DNA of 64,000 bases. Source: Candidatus Woesearchaeota archaeon. Lineage in GTDB: Archaea; Nanobdellota; Nanobdellia; Woesearchaeales; JAGVYF01. The notes beneath the pieces were generated by a model. It ran no database searches. It had not been told where the DNA came from and saw only the letters and a list, made by a program, of their open reading frames with translations. Made by a program: the position numbers and the translations under genes. The stretch covers positions 141,237 to 205,236 of the forward strand of contig JBAZLJ010000001.1 in assembly GCA_041650315.1 (NCBI GenBank), written 5' to 3'. The first letter of the stretch is position 1. Each line of letters opens with the position of its first letter. Shown one piece after another: positions 17,147-48,271 of this stretch.

Positions 17147-17857
17147 TTGACGTATTTCCGGAATATGGCAATTTTAGGGTTCAAAAACGTGATTGGCGAG
17201 TTCTCTTTCACTGATAAGTACAAAGTATCTAAGAAGAAAGCTGATCTTGTTATTGATGAATCCAATATAGATAAATATTCTAAAGTGCTGTTCCATTTCA
17301 AGAATAAGAAGTATTTTTCTAAGTTCTTCGCTGAGAATCTTAAATTGACTACATTAGCTCTTGGCGCAAAGAAGGATTACGACTTTTTGATACGTGAGAT
17401 TATCAAAGAGCTTGATCCGATGTATCGAGCTCGCAATACTCTGAAGGATGAGATATTGCTGAAGCATCTTGATGAAGTGATTGTCGAGAAAGAGATATAT
17501 CTTGAAAGCTTAATGGAAAAGTATTGTCCGAATTTGCTTGCAGTTGCGGATGCTTTTGTTGGAGGCAAGTTAATACATGCGGCTGGTTCTCTGGAGAAAC
17601 TTTCTAGGATGACTGCGCGCAAGATACAGATAATCGGCGCGGAATCGGCATTTTTCAGGTTCTTGAAATCGCAGAGGCGTGATGCGCCTATGTTTGGAAT
17701 CATATTCAATCATTCATTGGTCAAACGTTCATTGAATAAAGGCAAGGCTTCGCGTCTGCTTTCAGATAAGATTGTGATTGCTGCGCGTGTTGATTTTTTC
17801 AAGGGGGAATTTATAGGTGACAAGCTGAGGGAAGAGATTGAGCAAAAAATTGATTAA
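17147..17857 (+). CDS. nop5: Nop5 (Nop56/58) C/D box snoRNP protein, short form
   Basis: 236 aa; Nop domain ...GAESAFFRFLKSQRRDAPMFGIIFNHSLV...KGKASRLLSDKIVIAARVDFF; directly upstream of fibrillarin. Confidence 0.7.
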   Translation: MTYFRNMAILGFKNVIGEFSFTDKYKVSKKKADLVIDESNIDKYSKVLFHFKNKKYFSKFFAENLKLTTLALGAKKDYDFLIREIIKELDPMYRARNTLKDEILLKHLDEVIVEKEIYLESLMEKYCPNLLAVADAFVGGKLIHAAGSLEKLSRMTARKIQIIGAESAFFRFLKSQRRDAPMFGIIFNHSLVKRSLNKGKASRLLSDKIVIAARVDFFKGEFIGDKLREEIEQKID

Positions 17858-18410
17858 AAAGGAAGGAGAATATTATCTGGACGGACGTTTGTTCGACGCG
17901 TGCCATAGCAAGCTTGCTGCGGCCATGAAGAACGGATTGAAGAATCCGATTAAAAAAACTGATGTTGTACTTTATCTTGGCGCGTCGCATGGGTACACTC
18001 CTTCGTTTGTAGCTGAGATGTCTGCGTTTGTTTTCGCAGTTGAGTTTTCGCAATACGTGGTTGACGCACTTATTTCTGTTTGCAAGAAGGCGGGGAATAT
18101 TGCACCAATTCTTGCGGATGCTTCCAAGCCACTTACTTATTTCAGGCGCGTTTCTGGTGTTGATATTGTATATCAGGATATCGCGCAGAAGAATCAGGTT
18201 GGGATATTTGTTAAGAATATTAATCTGTTCTTGAAGAAAGGCGGGTATGGTCTTTTGGCTGTTAAGTGCAGAAGCATTGATGTTGCTGCAGATCCTGCTA
18301 AAGTATTCTCATCTGTAAAGTCTGAATTAGAAAAGCATTTAAAGATTGTAAGTTATACTTCTCTTGAACCTTTTGAGAAGGATCATTATTTCGTGATTGT
18401 GAGAAAATGA
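17838..18410 (+). CDS. flpA: Fibrillarin-like rRNA/tRNA 2'-O-methyltransferase
   Basis: 190 aa; [19 protein letters not shown] (cf. VLYLGAASGTT) and C-terminal ...[16 protein letters not shown]...[12 protein letters not shown]. Confidence 0.75.
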
Positions 18411-27176: not shown

Positions 27177-27235
27177 CGTATAGAATAAAAAATCGAGACT
27201 TTATAAATTTTTAGTTATTATCGGTTCTTAATCTT

Positions 27236-27263
27236 TAAGTCTGCAACGGATAATGTGGACTTA
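27236..27263. repeat. Short copy of the 'taagtctgcaacggataa' repeat family forming a hairpin (taagtc...gactta)
   Basis: Exact 20-mer shared with 34796-34816; lies immediately 3' of the KH-protein gene. Confidence 0.5.
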
Positions 27264-27273
27264 GAATTAGCAA

Positions 27274-30471: not shown

Positions 30472-30549
30472 AGAGTTCAACTCTCTTTTTTTCTTTTTAT
30501 TATTTTTCATATAGAAATTTATTTATAGTGATATCTCTATCTTAATCCC

Positions 30550-30873
30550 ATGGAAACACGCGGACGTCCGGTCGGTTCTGAGATTCGTTCTAATATCATC
30601 GAAATACTTTTTTTCATGGGGCAAGGATATGCCTATGAGGTGTATAAAACGTATCGCGAGATATTTCCGAAAGTCACTATGCGTTCTGTGTATTACCATC
30701 TGAACAAAGGCGCTGCTTTAGGCGTGTTCAAGGTGAAGGAAGTTAAGACGGAATCCGGCGATTATTCTTGGGGAACTTCTGCAGAGAAAATCTATTATTC
30801 TCTGGGCGAAAATGCCAAGCCTGTCGGCAATCTTCTGGTCAAGGATTATATTGATAAGAAACCGAAGATATAA
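30550..30873 (+). CDS. Winged-helix transcription regulator, PadR-like
   Basis: 107 aa; ...GQGYAYEVYKTYREIF...SVYYHLNKGAALGVF...YYSLGENA pattern. Confidence 0.5.
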   Translation: METRGRPVGSEIRSNIIEILFFMGQGYAYEVYKTYREIFPKVTMRSVYYHLNKGAALGVFKVKEVKTESGDYSWGTSAEKIYYSLGENAKPVGNLLVKDYIDKKPKI

Positions 30874-30905
30874 GTCAGCGGCTGGTTCAGATTGCGCATC
30901 TTAAA

Positions 30906-30957
30906 TATGATGACTGCCATTCCCGGGGACTGGGGACCTTGGCAGTTTTATTTTTTG
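30906..30957 (+). repeat. GC-rich hairpin element copy 1 (ATGATGA-CTGCCA-TTCCCGGGGACTGGGGACCT-TGGCAG + T-run); terminator-like
   Basis: Homologous to 34835-34870 with covarying stem bases (CTGCCA/TGGCAG vs ATAGCCA/TGGCTAT); followed by ttttattttttg. Confidence 0.5.
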
Positions 30958-31071
30958 TTTGATAATCTTCACAATTGTCGCTGACTTTCGAATAAAACAT
31001 AGAAAGGTATATATAAATGAGATTCTTGGTATATATTAGTTTATTTCAATCTAAAAAAGAGGTGCAATATA

Positions 31072-31329
31072 ATGAATGATACAGGATTTGTGAGACAACC
31101 TTTCTCTGCGTCTTTTCTACTGATAGGCGTTGTTGGTTTTTTGGTCAGTCTTTATTATACATGGTTTGGAATGCTTAATCTTACTTATGGTCTGCTTTTC
31201 ATGCTGATGTTTGCGATATTCGCAGTGGCTGCATTGAGGTCATTCGAAGAGAGCAAAAGCAAAAAAGTTGAAATGGTTAAAAAGCCATTAAAGAAAAAAG
31301 CTAAGAAAGTAGTCAAAAGAAGGAAATAG
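31072..31329 (+). CDS. Small membrane protein with Lys-rich C-terminal tail
   Basis: 85 aa; two hydrophobic helices then KKPLKKKAKKVVKRRK. Confidence 0.35.
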   Translation: MNDTGFVRQPFSASFLLIGVVGFLVSLYYTWFGMLNLTYGLLFMLMFAIFAVAALRSFEESKSKKVEMVKKPLKKKAKKVVKRRK

Positions 31330-31369: not shown

Positions 31370-32710
31370 TCAGAAATTGATTTTCTCGTCTTTGACGTTA
31401 CGTTTCTCAGGCGTTCCGGATAATGCGCTTGGCGCTTCTCCGCCGTGCCATGTGAATCTCGGACGGATCATGACTTGATACAATCTTTCGTTCTCGTCAT
31501 CTAGAATCACGGCTGAACCTTTTGATCTCGGCAAATTCTCAAACTGTTGGCCGAGATTCTCTCTCATATAGGATTGCGTCAGCATGCCCAATGCATCAAC
31601 ATCAAGTCTTGCGGTTATCCTGTGGCTGATGACGACATCAGATTGTGTCATAACATCAGTATGAATTTTACCGGGCTGTTGACTTGCCAGAACTAATGAA
31701 ATGCCTGGCTGCCTGCCTTCTCTTAGGATAGTGATCAATGCATCTGTCGCAGTAGTCTTGCCTACATTTGGGAGGAATTCATGCGCTTCATCGATTATGA
31801 GCCAGACCAATGGATTCTGTTCTTCAGCTGCAATTTCTCTGAAATAATGCTCAGATTCTTGGATTGCTTTGAATTCTTCATTTTTTCTGGCTGCCATTCT
31901 CTCAATGAATAGCTTTTGAGCAACAAGACCAATTACCAATGATTTAATTTCCCAGCCGTTTGGCGCTGTCGCATAACAACTAACATCTATGATGCTGACT
32001 TTTCCGCCAATGACTAAATCTTTGAATGGAGTTCCTTCAGGGCTGAACAAGCCCCACATGTCCGCATTCTTGAAATGGTTTATTGCTGCTTGTATCACAT
32101 GCGGTTCATTGGATTTATCTTCTTGAAATTTCTGGATGATATCGTGTATAGAATAATTCTCTTTTTCGATTAAAAGGTCATTAAGTATGGTTTCGATGAG
32201 TATTGCGATTGGATCATTACTCGCCAGTTTGAATGTCAGTATCCAATCCTGCGCAGTTAAATCGCTCGGCCTTATCGCGTAGGGGAAATCTGTTGGTATG
32301 CCTTTCTCTTTGTATTCTTTGTAGTATCCGATTGGCGTGAATATCTGTACGTCAAGAGCTTTGCCTTCAAGATTCCACTCTTTGAGCATTGCCTCATCTT
32401 TATGATTAGGATATTTCATGGTCCAGTAAACGCCCATTGTATCTAAAATTACACAGCTGAGATTTTTGGATATATCAGAATCGAGTCCAGTGATGCCTTC
32501 GGCGATGACACCCATTGTATATGATTTACCACCGCCTCTTTTTCCGCAGACGAATACAACGTGCGATCTCGCTACATCTAAGTAAAGATTGTTTGCCAAT
32601 GAAGTAATTTGGCCCATATGCACGAATTGCCTGGCTAGAAAGACTGTTCCTGACTTGCCATATTTTTCTATGTCGGATTTCTTCCTGCCTATGATTATGT
32701 CGTAGACCAT
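31370..32710 (-). CDS. FtsK/HerA-superfamily P-loop ATPase (DUF87/HerA-like)
   Basis: 446 aa; Walker A GKRGGGKSYTMGVI, Walker B LIIDEAHEFLP; no NurA partner nearby. Confidence 0.7.
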   Translation of the reverse strand: MVYDIIIGRKKSDIEKYGKSGTVFLARQFVHMGQITSLANNLYLDVARSHVVFVCGKRGGGKSYTMGVIAEGITGLDSDISKNLSCVILDTMGVYWTMKYPNHKDEAMLKEWNLEGKALDVQIFTPIGYYKEYKEKGIPTDFPYAIRPSDLTAQDWILTFKLASNDPIAILIETILNDLLIEKENYSIHDIIQKFQEDKSNEPHVIQAAINHFKNADMWGLFSPEGTPFKDLVIGGKVSIIDVSCYATAPNGWEIKSLVIGLVAQKLFIERMAARKNEEFKAIQESEHYFREIAAEEQNPLVWLIIDEAHEFLPNVGKTTATDALITILREGRQPGISLVLASQQPGKIHTDVMTQSDVVISHRITARLDVDALGMLTQSYMRENLGQQFENLPRSKGSAVILDDENERLYQVMIRPRFTWHGGEAPSALSGTPEKRNVKDEKINF

Positions 32711-34714: not shown

Positions 34715-34797
34715 TTGTCTACCCCTCCGATTTTACTAAGAATTTATAGCAACTATTATTATATAAAGGTATCGAAACAAATTCAACGATTGAGTTT

Positions 34798-34911
34798 TAA
34801 GTCTGCAACGGATAAATTTTCTACTTCTAATTGCGATGATAGCCATTCCCGGGACCGGTACCTTGGCTATTCTCTTATTATGCTATAAAATTTATAATGG
34901 TTGCAGACTTA
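34798..34911. repeat. Composite palindromic element (MITE-like): 12-bp terminal inverted repeat taagtctgcaac/gttgcagactta enclosing the conserved GATGATA-GCCATTCCCGGGACCGGTACCTTGGC hairpin (34835-34870)
   Basis: Left arm 34798-34809, right arm 34900-34911. Shares an exact 20-mer with 27234-27253 and the inner hairpin with 30906-30945. Confidence 0.55.
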
Positions 34912-34918
34912 ATTAGAA

Positions 34919-35980
34919 TCAGTAACTAGTTTTGTAACGCAATATCGCACCTATGCCGCCAAGTCCGTCTAACTTTTTTCCGCCGTCATGGAGCGATGAT
35001 ATGATTGTGATGTCTCCGTTCGTCTGGTCAACAATTTTCATTATCTTGTCGATTTCATTGTATACATTATCCAATCTTGTCTTTTCAATGAAATTGTCTG
35101 TAATCAATAACTGCTCAACTGCGCCGGCATGAGCTTTTTCTTGGACTTCTTTCAAGCCATATGCTGCTTTGCCATCAATTGATATTTCTTTGAGCAGGTT
35201 TTCCACAAGATTTATTTCTTTTGCGGCTCTGTCTTGTCTTAGTACTGTTTGCGTTTCCGGTCTTCTTAGGACTTCATTAATAGCAGTTTCGCTCGCGCTT
35301 GAGCAAGTGACCAATGTTATCTTTTGTTTTATCATGCTGTCTGTGATTAGTTTCAATAAGTCTTCTTTCCAGAATGCGGGGCTTGCCAGCAGGATTTTTT
35401 CAATTTCATATCTTTTGGTGTACTCAGTCATTTGCTTGATTATGTCTTGATAGAAAGTGTTCCTTGATGCTGCGCTTTCCTGCTTTTTCTCAACATCGCC
35501 TTGCAGGCTTGTAAGTAGCGTGTATCCGGATTGGCTTGATAACGCGAAGAAAGCTTCTTCTCGGTCCATCACGCATATGAGTATCTTTGGGAGTTTAGGT
35601 TCAGCAGCTTCCTGCAGTTTTTTTATCTGGTAAGTAAGCCATCTTTCCTTTTCAATTGTGATTACTGAGTTTTCTTCTAATGTGAATGAATGGTAGCTTC
35701 CCCTTGGAACATCATCCGGGCCTTCTGTAATTGGTCCGAGTATTCTTAATTGGTTTGTTTCGTATTCTATCTTTTCAACTTGGATCTTGATGAAAGCTGG
35801 TTTTTTAATTACGTTTGCTTTACGCTCATCGCTTCCGCCTTCAAGTTTTATTTTCCTAAACGTTCTTCCGCTGACAAAATCCTTTTCTGATATCAGTTGG
35901 CTTAGATACCAAAGGTCATCAGGGTTTGTCACCTGTACTGTGGCTGTGCCATGGTTTAGGCTCTTTGAAATGATTTTCAT
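34919..35980 (-). CDS. pelA: Pelota (Dom34) ribosome-rescue factor
   Basis: Start set at MKIISKS...; TNPDDLWYLSQLISEKDFVSGRTFRK N-domain; eRF1-like domains. Confidence 0.85.
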   Translation of the reverse strand: MKIISKSLNHGTATVQVTNPDDLWYLSQLISEKDFVSGRTFRKIKLEGGSDERKANVIKKPAFIKIQVEKIEYETNQLRILGPITEGPDDVPRGSYHSFTLEENSVITIEKERWLTYQIKKLQEAAEPKLPKILICVMDREEAFFALSSQSGYTLLTSLQGDVEKKQESAASRNTFYQDIIKQMTEYTKRYEIEKILLASPAFWKEDLLKLITDSMIKQKITLVTCSSASETAINEVLRRPETQTVLRQDRAAKEINLVENLLKEISIDGKAAYGLKEVQEKAHAGAVEQLLITDNFIEKTRLDNVYNEIDKIMKIVDQTNGDITIISSLHDGGKKLDGLGGIGAILRYKTSY

Positions 35981-47377: not shown

Positions 47378-48271
47378 CTATTTAGCTTTAATACCAATTT
47401 TTTCGTTCAGTAACACTTTGTTTTGGCATTCGCCTTTCAGGCTGCAGGCATTGCATTTGTTCTCAGAATGAATTGGTTCAGGTATTTCACTTGAATCCAA
47501 GGTTTCTTTTACTTTTTTTATTAACGCTAGGATGTCTTGCTTCAAGAAAGGGTTCATTATGACATCGTATTTGATGTCTTCGTTAAGGTAATGGATGTAT
47601 CCGCCTTTGACTTCAAGGCCGTATTTCTCTTCTAGAAGGAGCATGTATGCCGCTAATTGTATCCTGTGACCCTCCCATAATGTGTCTGTCGGCGCTTTGC
47701 CTGTCTTTAATTCGGCGGGTATAATGTTGCCTTTGTAGATCTCTACTCTATCTATGACTCCCATTAGTTCGAGTTTTTGGGATTCAACCCTTACTTCAGA
47801 TTCTATTTTAGGCGTAAGCTTTTCCCATAATTGTTCGCCTAGAAGGTTATTTTCTTTGATGAATTCGCAGATATTCTGGGATCTGAACTTGTACTCTTTT
47901 TCCATAAACGGCCAGATTGTCTTGAAAGTCTCGCCTAGATCAAGATTCACATCTTTTAGTGAAGGTTTGAACTTGATAATGGATTCTCTTACAGTCAGAG
48001 AATATTTTTGCTTGTAATGATTCTGAATAGTGTTTATGTTCTGGTCTTTTATTGATAGGACTATGCTTTTCTCCATCTTATTGATTTTGTCATAGATGTC
48101 ATGCCTTAATGAGCCGATGATTGTGGCTTCCCTTGGCGGTTCGATGAATCCTAATACTTTAGTAAGATAGAGTTTTCTAGGGCAATATAGGTAGCTGGTC
48201 AGTGCAGTTACGCTTAGCATAGATTTTATGTGGGGAATGGAGTATATAAATCTCACGGGTGACCAGTGCAC
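47378..48271 (-). CDS. Cas4-like PD-(D/E)xK nuclease (DUF83) with Fe-S cysteine cluster, stand-alone
   Basis: 297 aa; N-terminal YLYCPRKLYL, IGSLRHD, GVIDRVE, ELKTGK, QLAAYMLLLE, C-terminal CNACSLKGEC. Confidence 0.65.
   Translation of the reverse strand: MHWSPVRFIYSIPHIKSMLSVTALTSYLYCPRKLYLTKVLGFIEPPREATIIGSLRHDIYDKINKMEKSIVLSIKDQNINTIQNHYKQKYSLTVRESIIKFKPSLKDVNLDLGETFKTIWPFMEKEYKFRSQNICEFIKENNLLGEQLWEKLTPKIESEVRVESQKLELMGVIDRVEIYKGNIIPAELKTGKAPTDTLWEGHRIQLAAYMLLLEEKYGLEVKGGYIHYLNEDIKYDVIMNPFLKQDILALIKKVKETLDSSEIPEPIHSENKCNACSLKGECQNKVLLNEKIGIKAK

Follow-up and report, generated by a model that had tools for sequence, protein, structure and literature searches.

The stretch of DNA analysed here, 64,000 nucleotides (nt) of contig JBAZLJ010000001.1 from a Candidatus Woesearchaeota archaeon and referred to below as the window, encodes topoisomerase VI B, a KH-domain protein, a RIO kinase, DnaG, a HerA-like ATPase, pelota, Nop5/fibrillarin and aminoacyl-tRNA synthetases. 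Dispersed between its genes are copies of a palindromic element of about 115–135 bp, and it is this element, its fold and its distribution that we describe. Three copies lie in the window, all within 8 kb, and two more lie within 0.8 kb of each other on L030, an 11.8-kb part of a 392-kb metagenome contig. The known total in this one species is four full-length copies and one remnant, at five unrelated intergenic sites in two separate regions. An initial annotation of the window had proposed a repeat family from three occurrences, and had named as the contrary outcome that there be no further copies and that duplication of a single 3' untranslated region (UTR) explain those at hand; the two copies on L030 speak against that outcome. 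The elements are 116–125 nt long and have a GC content of 35–43% with AT-rich arms, all are intergenic, and the sole open reading frame (ORF) running across copy 1 is an unsupported 57-codon frame with a TTG start. Two subfamilies can be distinguished: subfamily I comprises copy 1, L030-A and the remnant copy 3, and subfamily II comprises copy 2 and L030-B.

Copies of the element and their genomic positions

Copy 1 (subfamily I, plus strand) is full-length and occupies 34797–34912, its 116 nt including 13-bp inverted termini, TTAAGTCTGCAAC at 34797–34809 and GTTGCAGACTTAA at 34900–34912. The 12-bp termini described at the outset were correct, and grow to 13 bp once the flanking T/A is counted. 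The right terminus runs into ATTAGAAT at 34912–34919, a sequence that, on comparison of the flanks, also follows the right end of L030-B and is found in degraded versions after copies 2 and 3. At the centre of copy 1 stands a GC-rich apical hairpin (ATAGCCA...TGGCTAT; 34839–34870, plus strand) containing GCCATTCCCGGG at 34842–34853 and ACCTTGGC at 34860–34867. The core TAAGTCTGCAAC, said to recur in inverted form, indeed occurs exactly three times in the window, at 27236 and 34798 on the plus and at 34900 on the minus strand; no other exact match exists there, and no further solo termini were found in the intergenic DNA of the ~90 kb scanned. The 20-mer TTTAAGTCTGCAACGGATAA is likewise exact at 27234–27253 and at 34796–34815, the end of the second occurrence having been placed one base too far, at 34816. 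That such a repeat is unexpected holds true, with ~0.004 occurrences expected in 64 kb, whereas the GC content of ~35% assumed for that argument has to be corrected to 38.6% for the window.

Copy 2 (subfamily II, plus strand) had been listed as a mere hairpin at 30906–30957. It is in fact a complete, full-length element of 118 nt at 30871–30988 with inverted termini of its own, 9 bp long (AAGTCAGCG at 30872–30880 and CGCTGACTT at 30979–30987). Its apical GC-rich hairpin (30913–30946, plus strand) holds GCCATTCCCGGG at 30916–30927 and ACCTTGGC at 30936–30943, and is directly followed by the U-tract TTTTATTTTTT at 30946–30956, the only terminator-like layout that reads in the sense direction. 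The two apical hairpins share the 12-mer GCCATTCCCGGG, which is exact at 30916 and 34842; allowing up to two mismatches, this 12-mer gives five matches against 1.2 expected, a count reached in none of 100 shuffles. The stem changes between the two copies, CTGCCA/TGGCAG versus ATAGCCA/TGGCTAT, had been stated correctly, but among the stacked GC palindromes held to mark the loops only CCCGG(G) recurs, ACCGGT and GGTACC being peculiar to copy 1. Copies 1 and 2 align end to end, their arms being 60% identical (47/78), and the arms resemble each other more than shuffles do even with the centre excluded (left arm z 2.9, reached by 19 of 1000 shuffles; right arm z 3.3, reached by 7 of 1000).

A covariance model, R1, was built from three copies and then revealed L030-B. 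Scored with R1, copy 1 reaches 138.7 bits and copy 2 135.9 bits, and copy 3 is matched weakly, at 11.8 bits. Copy 3 (27234–27267, plus strand) is a remnant, 28–34 nt long, of a subfamily I element and consists of TTTAAGTCTGCAACGGATAA, TGTG and GACTTAGAAT. Its layout, in which TAAGTCTGCAACGGATAA is followed by TGTG and then by GACTTA, fits an internal deletion between the ATAA repeats of both arms of a copy-1-like element, plus small later changes, as we infer from the arrangement of the sequence. On the second contig, L030-A (subfamily I; L030 3381–3488) matches copy 1 at 83% identity across 105 nt. L030-B (subfamily II; L030 4081–4205) lies 0.7 kb from it and is bounded by the 11-bp termini TAAGTTAGCAT and ATGCTAACTTA. 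Its end-to-end alignment with copy 2 holds in the plus orientation only (z 4.5, reverse ~0), and its apex has diverged. Over the whole family, the inverted termini are longest in copy 1 (13 bp), followed by L030-B (11 bp), copy 2 (9 bp; 11 bp in a sister strain) and L030-A (8 bp).

L030 and the window have no genes in common, L030-A being their sole DNA similarity. The T2SSE ATPase of L030 (P0121) is 100% identical to a protein on ERZ27247363 k141_3083672, the 1,007,146-bp ENA metagenome contig that holds the window and on which the exact window pelota protein is found, and we therefore assign L030 to the same species as the window. Elements of this kind break short-read assemblies; the Logan contig SRR8542065_319777 begins precisely at the midpoint of the L030-B palindrome (L037 1–70 equals L030 4136–4205). 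L030 also carries a free-standing LAGLIDADG-like gene of 203 aa at 236–847 (Pfam LAGLIDADG_3, 1.7e-13), 2.5 kb from L030-A.

Each copy fills the gap from a stop codon to the TATA box of the next gene. Copy 1 lies between the pelota stop codon (34919–34921, minus strand) and the TATA box of a TrmB-like gene (~34758–34766), and copy 3 between the stop of the KH-domain gene (27274) and the topoisomerase VI B TATA box (27200–27207). The first three bases of copy 2, TAA, are themselves the stop codon of a 107-aa ORF (30550–30873), and its right end is ~20 nt away from the TATA box of an 85-aa gene. In L030-B the TTCTAATTAAGT end provides the stop codon of a permease gene, and the same 12 bases end copy 1. 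The earlier statement that the copies sit just 3' of genes is accordingly right in that every one closely follows a stop codon, but it misses that they also lie immediately upstream of the next TATA box. In the four copies located between minus-strand genes, the left end is 15–32 nt from the neighbour's near-palindromic TATA box; copy 2 has coding sequence upstream of it, and the sister strain no longer has its TATA-like stretch. Orientation relative to the neighbouring genes is inconsistent, as had been observed: copy 2 is sense, and copy 1, L030-A and L030-B are antisense to both neighbours. Downstream of the 107-aa gene, the GC hairpin of copy 2 and the UUUUAUUUUUU that follows it provide the only U-rich stretch, and copy 2 therefore probably ends this transcript. 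The gene itself had been called PadR-like, an assignment that we could not reproduce, its sole match being a sub-threshold one to FUR (E 0.037).

Fold and conservation of the hairpin

Copy 1 (34797–34912) is predicted to fold as one long irregular hairpin of -40.3 kcal/mol on the plus and -39.8 kcal/mol on the minus strand (z -4.4/-4.8), with none of 200 shuffles being equally stable. Copy 2 yields a fold of the same kind (-44.5 kcal/mol, z -3.7), and L030-B reaches -43.7 kcal/mol on the minus and -31.1 kcal/mol on the plus strand. Whole-element folds range from -31 to -50 kcal/mol, with z between -2.9 and -4.8 on the better strand. The plus strand folds better in three of the four copies and the minus strand in L030-B, amounting to no consistent strand preference.

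The alignment of three copies comprises 36 predicted pairs, with 94.3% of the cells paired. Covariation, which the initial annotation had suggested as a check, is present: ten pairs carry changes on both sides, compared to 3.4±1.5 in shuffles (reached in 0 of 500) and to at most 2 when the partners are slid. When L030-B and the L022 copy from the sister strain are added, the outer stem covaries at five positions with five sequences. On the plus strand, G.U pairs account for six cells, with one G.U common to all three copies, and A.C for a single cell. Embedded in these changing stems are GCCATTCCCGG(G) and ACCTTGGC, which contain a 3-nt CCU bulge and do not vary among copy 1, copy 2 and L030-A. 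This combination indicates that the hairpin and its apical motif, GCCAUUCCCGG(G)...ACCUUGGC, are under selection and that the copies, once inserted, do not decay freely.

We compared the element with known classes of structured RNA and DNA. Rfam 15 returned only tRNA-Cys for the whole window, and local searches at E values up to 10 gave only sub-threshold chance matches. A C/D box small RNA (sRNA) was rejected because AUGAUGA is present in copy 2 only, the equivalent positions reading GAUGAUA in copy 1, UAAGAUA in L030-A and GUGAUUG in L030-B; moreover, the box C-like motif lies 36 nt inside the element, has no conserved CUGA partner and goes with no Rfam match. The machinery of C/D box small ribonucleoproteins is present in the window, in the form of a Nop5–fibrillarin operon at 17147–18410, though the elements are not C/D sRNAs. 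No copy has an ACA after the outer stem, as an H/ACA sRNA would, and the CCU bulge is not followed by GA pairs on either strand, as it would be in a K-turn. Integron attC sites do not fit either: GCAAC/GTTGC occurs only in copy 1, copy 2 has GCGGC/GTCGC and L030-B is likewise without the core, the flanking genes are housekeeping genes that are syntenic in relatives, and no integrase was seen. An origin recognition box (ORB) of a replication origin was dismissed because there is no orc1/cdc6 nearby and no ORB-like dyad with a G-string. An operator of the neighbouring TrmB-like regulator was set aside because the other copies adjoin unrelated genes.

Sister strain, relatives and further searches

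In the relatives used for comparison, species with a pelota 68–75% identical, gene order around the elements is conserved. The pelota–TrmB spacer measures 204 nt here and 67, 99, 175 and 224 nt in four relatives without the copy 1 insert; these four keep the TTTATATAAT promoter and the ribosome-binding site in the spacer, without the element. The spacer harboring copy 2 measures 198 nt here, as against 31, 77 and 123 nt in three relatives, where the hairpin is missing, and an R1 search of ~80 kb of syntenic DNA of the relatives returned no copy. On this comparison, the elements appear to be lineage-specific additions.

Other differences from the relatives were seen around the same sites. L019 (9060–9234) and L023 (9060–9283) have their own, unrelated extra ~100–150 nt in the pelota–TrmB spacer, a spacer that seems to accept insertions repeatedly. 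An S-adenosylmethionine (SAM) synthetase gene lies between the HerA-like (DUF87) gene and the 85-aa gene in L018, L019, L021 and L023 and is missing from the corresponding interval of the window (31370–32710 to 31072–31329). An HTH-CBS gene is found at the same place in L018, L021 and L023, and a radical SAM gene after TrmB in L018; the window is without them. From the missing genes it follows that the element-bearing region has also lost or moved genes.

The sister strain is represented by contigs L022 and L032, the latter covering the same locus as the window. Copy 1 is identical in both contigs. In copy 2, one substitution lengthens the terminal repeat to 11 bp, and a 55-nt insertion, CATTAGAAGTCCATGGGACTTCTATGCGCAGAAGTGCTTATGAGCACTTCCGCTG (L022 9956–10010, same in L032), sits exactly in the apical loop, at the point corresponding to window position 30927/30928, so that the sister-strain copy is 171 nt long. 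The insertion adds two perfect hairpins with similar AGAAGT starting arms, which turn the predicted fold into a three-way junction (-50 kcal/mol, z -6.6); the apical segment of L022 folds with z -6.6/-8.7. A search for further copies of the 55-nt insert in the sequences compared was negative. Because L030-A has a short apex, the short form is probably ancestral.

Two explanations for the long L022 form could be discarded. It is not a hammerhead or another three-way-junction ribozyme, since the core motifs CUGANGA and GAAA are missing and Rfam is empty. The insert is not a bulge-helix-bulge intron either, since in the predicted fold one junction falls into a 4-nt unpaired stretch and the other inside a helix, and the start of the intron cannot pair with the start of the downstream segment. 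A further difference between the two strains concerns the region downstream of dnaG, where the window has one perfect hairpin with a T-run (30472–30500; AGAGAGTTCAACTCTCT TTTTTT) and the sister strain has three different ones (L022 10451–10519). Comparison of these sequences suggests that 3'-end hairpins turn over rapidly between strains.

For searches beyond these genomes, the apical motif was specified as GCCATTCCCGGG, a gap of 4–12 and ACCTTGGC. A scan of JGI metagenome contigs with this pattern returned two true matches, L032 and L030, both from this species, along with four chance matches. BLAST searches of phages and plasmids gave nothing relevant, and the scans of viral contigs produced 0 matches and 2 matches in coding sequence. 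A literature search for the 12-mers had one archaeal match, a coincidental one to a PCR primer that lies within a gene of a Heimdallarchaeal virus.

Interpretation of the family

According to these data, we consider it probable, if only just, that the element is a low-copy, lineage-specific, MITE-like (miniature inverted-repeat transposable element) palindromic intergenic repeat of one Woesearchaeota species, resembling ERIC and SPRITE, with its hairpin under selection. MITEs are described as shorter than 500 bp and without coding capacity, with terminal inverted repeats (TIRs) of ~4–30 bp and flanking direct repeats, as occupying AT-rich intergenic sites, forming stable stem-loops, and occurring clustered and nested (PMC10969869). 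The present family matches them in size, in TIRs of 9–13 bp, in its AT-rich intergenic sites, stable stem-loops, clustering and nesting, and in its absence from the orthologous sites of relatives. Unlike the MITEs SM1–SM4 of Sulfolobus, those of Halobacterium and Haloquadratum and the Correia elements of Neisseria, it is least conserved at its termini and most at its centre, it has no flanking direct repeats, no parent insertion sequence or transposase was found for it, and just five copies are known. Archaea named as hosts of MITEs are Sulfolobus, Halobacterium, Haloquadratum and Desulfurococcus, besides 'several other archaeal genomes' left unnamed (PMC10969869). For Woesearchaeota, our literature search turned up no description of palindromic or MITE-like repeat families; the family is new for this group, and its kind is already known in bacteria and other archaea.

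Several observations weigh against a mobile repeat. The initial annotation had considered a small mobile repeat family, and the family is genuine and lineage-specific, but neither a consistent target-site duplication nor a precise empty site nor a transposase came to light. The flanks of the five copies contain no shared direct repeat; a TA or TTAA duplication would hide inside the palindrome, and copy 2, flanked by TA on the left and TT on the right, does not fit a TA duplication. No precise empty site can be defined, the relatives' spacers being otherwise unalignable, and the only closer genome (L022/L032, 96.5% identity) has both of the copies that it covers, 1 and 2. The ~100 kb of this species that were examined contain no transposase and no longer element with these termini, nor do they encode an integrase or HUH enzyme. 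Copy number is low: the remaining parts of the window, the 8 kb adjoining it and L037 yielded no additional copies. Among 185,579 GTDB species representatives the exact apical motif gave 15 bacterial chance matches and no archaeon, and the JGI metagenomes contributed no other organism with it; recent mobility across hosts is accordingly not seen. Finally, the termini vary (with compensation) and the centre is invariant, the reverse of what recognition of TIRs by a transposase predicts. This conservation, opposite to that of a classical MITE, indicates that selection acts on the strand in its folded, single-stranded state and on a recognition motif at the apex. The alternative offered in the initial annotation, an RNA–protein recognition motif, therefore stays plausible.

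If the favoured reading is correct, the repeat would spread through duplicative insertion, entering the short stretches that separate stop codons from the promoters that follow, copied by a transposase acting in trans or by some other copy mechanism. Once in place, it would be transcribed within the 3' or intergenic region of a neighbouring mRNA and form a very stable hairpin in either orientation. Such a hairpin would define or protect RNA 3' ends and insulate tightly packed genes, and in the plus orientation the GC hairpin with its U-tract would add a terminator-like signal. The invariant apex suggests recognition by a protein. DPANN genomes are very small and tightly packed, and repeats in them are rare. 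A repeat that inserts at stop codons and beside promoters, even supplying the stop codon or the sole U-tract, can alter both the ends of genes and their expression. Through its invariant apex and compensatory stems, the hairpin is also a testable candidate for binding by a protein, as RNA or as DNA, in a lineage without cultivated members.

REP sequences and REPINs are hairpin-forming extragenic repeats that constitute within-genome families with compensatory change, are mobilised by RAYT and are possibly recognised as folded single strands. Our elements are likewise extragenic hairpins with compensatory change and a within-genome family; unlike in REPINs, whose arms are conserved and whose tip is variable, the pattern here is the reverse, no RAYT gene was seen, and copy number is far lower. 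Closer in build is the ERIC/IRU repeat of Enterobacteriaceae (~127 bp), which has a similar length, is an imperfect palindrome throughout and is strictly intergenic, inside or next to transcription units. ERIC reportedly has a well-conserved central inverted repeat, and longer and shorter variants are said to arise by internal insertions and deletions at fixed points. In both families copy number is low to moderate and differs between close lineages. The differences are that there is no sequence similarity, that the present host is archaeal, that no TA duplication is demonstrable, and that copy number is much lower so far. For ERIC, copy numbers and variation between strains have been documented, as has an effect on mRNA fate, involving RNase E, when the element is placed at a 3' end (PMC10969869). 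The pneumococcal SPRITE is also a dispersed small repeat, with a terminator-like core of hairpin plus U-tract, as in copy 2 and, less clearly, in L030-A (PMC10969869). It differs in its bacterial host, and here the terminator-like module lies inside a much longer palindrome that is mostly antisense to the upstream gene.

We also weighed readings in which the element is not a mobile repeat. It could be a family of genes for small structured RNAs, plus-strand long-hairpin RNAs of ~115–130 nt whose GC-rich apex is bound by a protein and whose 3' end lies at the U-tract or at the end of the outer stem. The structure-preserving evolution and the invariant apical motif are what RNA genes show, and the plus strand carries G.U cells (6 vs 1 A.C) and folds better in three of four copies; in four copies, the near-palindromic TATA box 15–32 nt from the 5' end would start a divergent plus-strand transcript close by. 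Yet these TATA boxes are those of the adjacent genes, with which they are retained in relatives, and copy 2 is preceded by coding sequence, its TATA-like stretch being abolished in the sister strain. L030-B is far more stable when folded on the minus strand, and its apex has diverged. The G.U cells are few and in part reflect common descent, and there is no Rfam match even at E up to 10. Absence from the syntenic DNA of relatives would be unusual for a functional RNA gene family, and in sum we regard RNA genes as the main rival of the favoured reading, but as unlikely. Still less probable, in our judgement, are ordinary 3'-end or terminator hairpins that resemble each other through a few local duplications of one 3' UTR. 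Such an origin would agree with the close succession of stop codon and element in every copy, with the sense GC hairpin plus U4AU6 in copy 2, where no other U-tract follows the gene, with the rapid turnover of hairpins downstream of dnaG (one here, three in the sister strain), and with clustering of three window copies in 8 kb and two L030 copies in 0.8 kb. Three of the four full-length copies are, however, antisense to the upstream gene, and their hairpin plus U-tract reads the wrong way, an argument against a plain terminator that the initial annotation had made with good reason. Archaeal termination requires only oligo-U and no hairpin. The relatives use plain T-runs at the same sites, and a 115-nt hairpin of 36 pairs with an invariant apex far exceeds a terminator. 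In addition, copies occur at a second, unrelated genomic locus, and the window has no general excess of perfect hairpins (9 vs 11.7 expected).

Recognition at the level of DNA is another reading to which we give little credence, as little as to the terminators. The bulged apical hairpin would then serve an HUH/Y1-type enzyme as its single-stranded DNA substrate, in the manner of REP/RAYT and of derivatives of IS200/IS605, or the palindrome would bind a regulator such as the TrmB-like protein. Conservation of the bulged hairpin, with non-paired invariant bases and covarying stems, is in line with this, as is a function that appears independent of orientation; nesting of hairpins, with the 55-nt insert at the tip, would fit insertion into hairpin loops, and copy 1 lies upstream of a gene for a TrmB-family regulator. 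The ~100 kb examined, however, contain no Y1/HUH transposase, RAYT or TnpB, the elements possess terminal inverted repeats that IS200/IS605-type elements are without, and the 55-nt insert does not recur elsewhere in the sequences compared. As for a regulator, the other copies adjoin unrelated genes, and half-sites ~90 bp apart are unsuited to a dimeric one.

Beyond the favoured reading of a MITE-like repeat under selection, the nested tips are worth considering. A GC hairpin tops the AT-rich arms, and in the sister strain the 55-nt two-hairpin insertion tops the GC hairpin in turn, an arrangement that suggests insertion of hairpin modules into existing tips. The apical hairpin GCCAUUCCCGG(G)...ACCUUGGC might on this basis be the site of a candidate nucleic-acid-binding protein or enzyme of DPANN archaea, with the family growing by the entry of new hairpin modules into hairpin tips; we put this forward as a long shot. 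If true, it would amount to hairpin-targeting propagation or to a new RNA–protein system, rather than to a MITE moved by a TIR-recognising transposase.

Two further features of the window lie apart from the elements. At 47378–48271 it contains a gene for a Cas4-like PD-(D/E)XK nuclease (Pfam Cas_Cas4, 1.2e-22); the scan of window genes gave no second cas-family match, and no CRISPR-like array appeared in the repeat scan. At 2131–2933, six tandem units of ~150 nt (spacing 138–156 nt, 62–79% identical) occupy a region for which no complete ORF is listed. This region is probably part of a large ORF running off the left end of the window, which may encode a repetitive surface protein.

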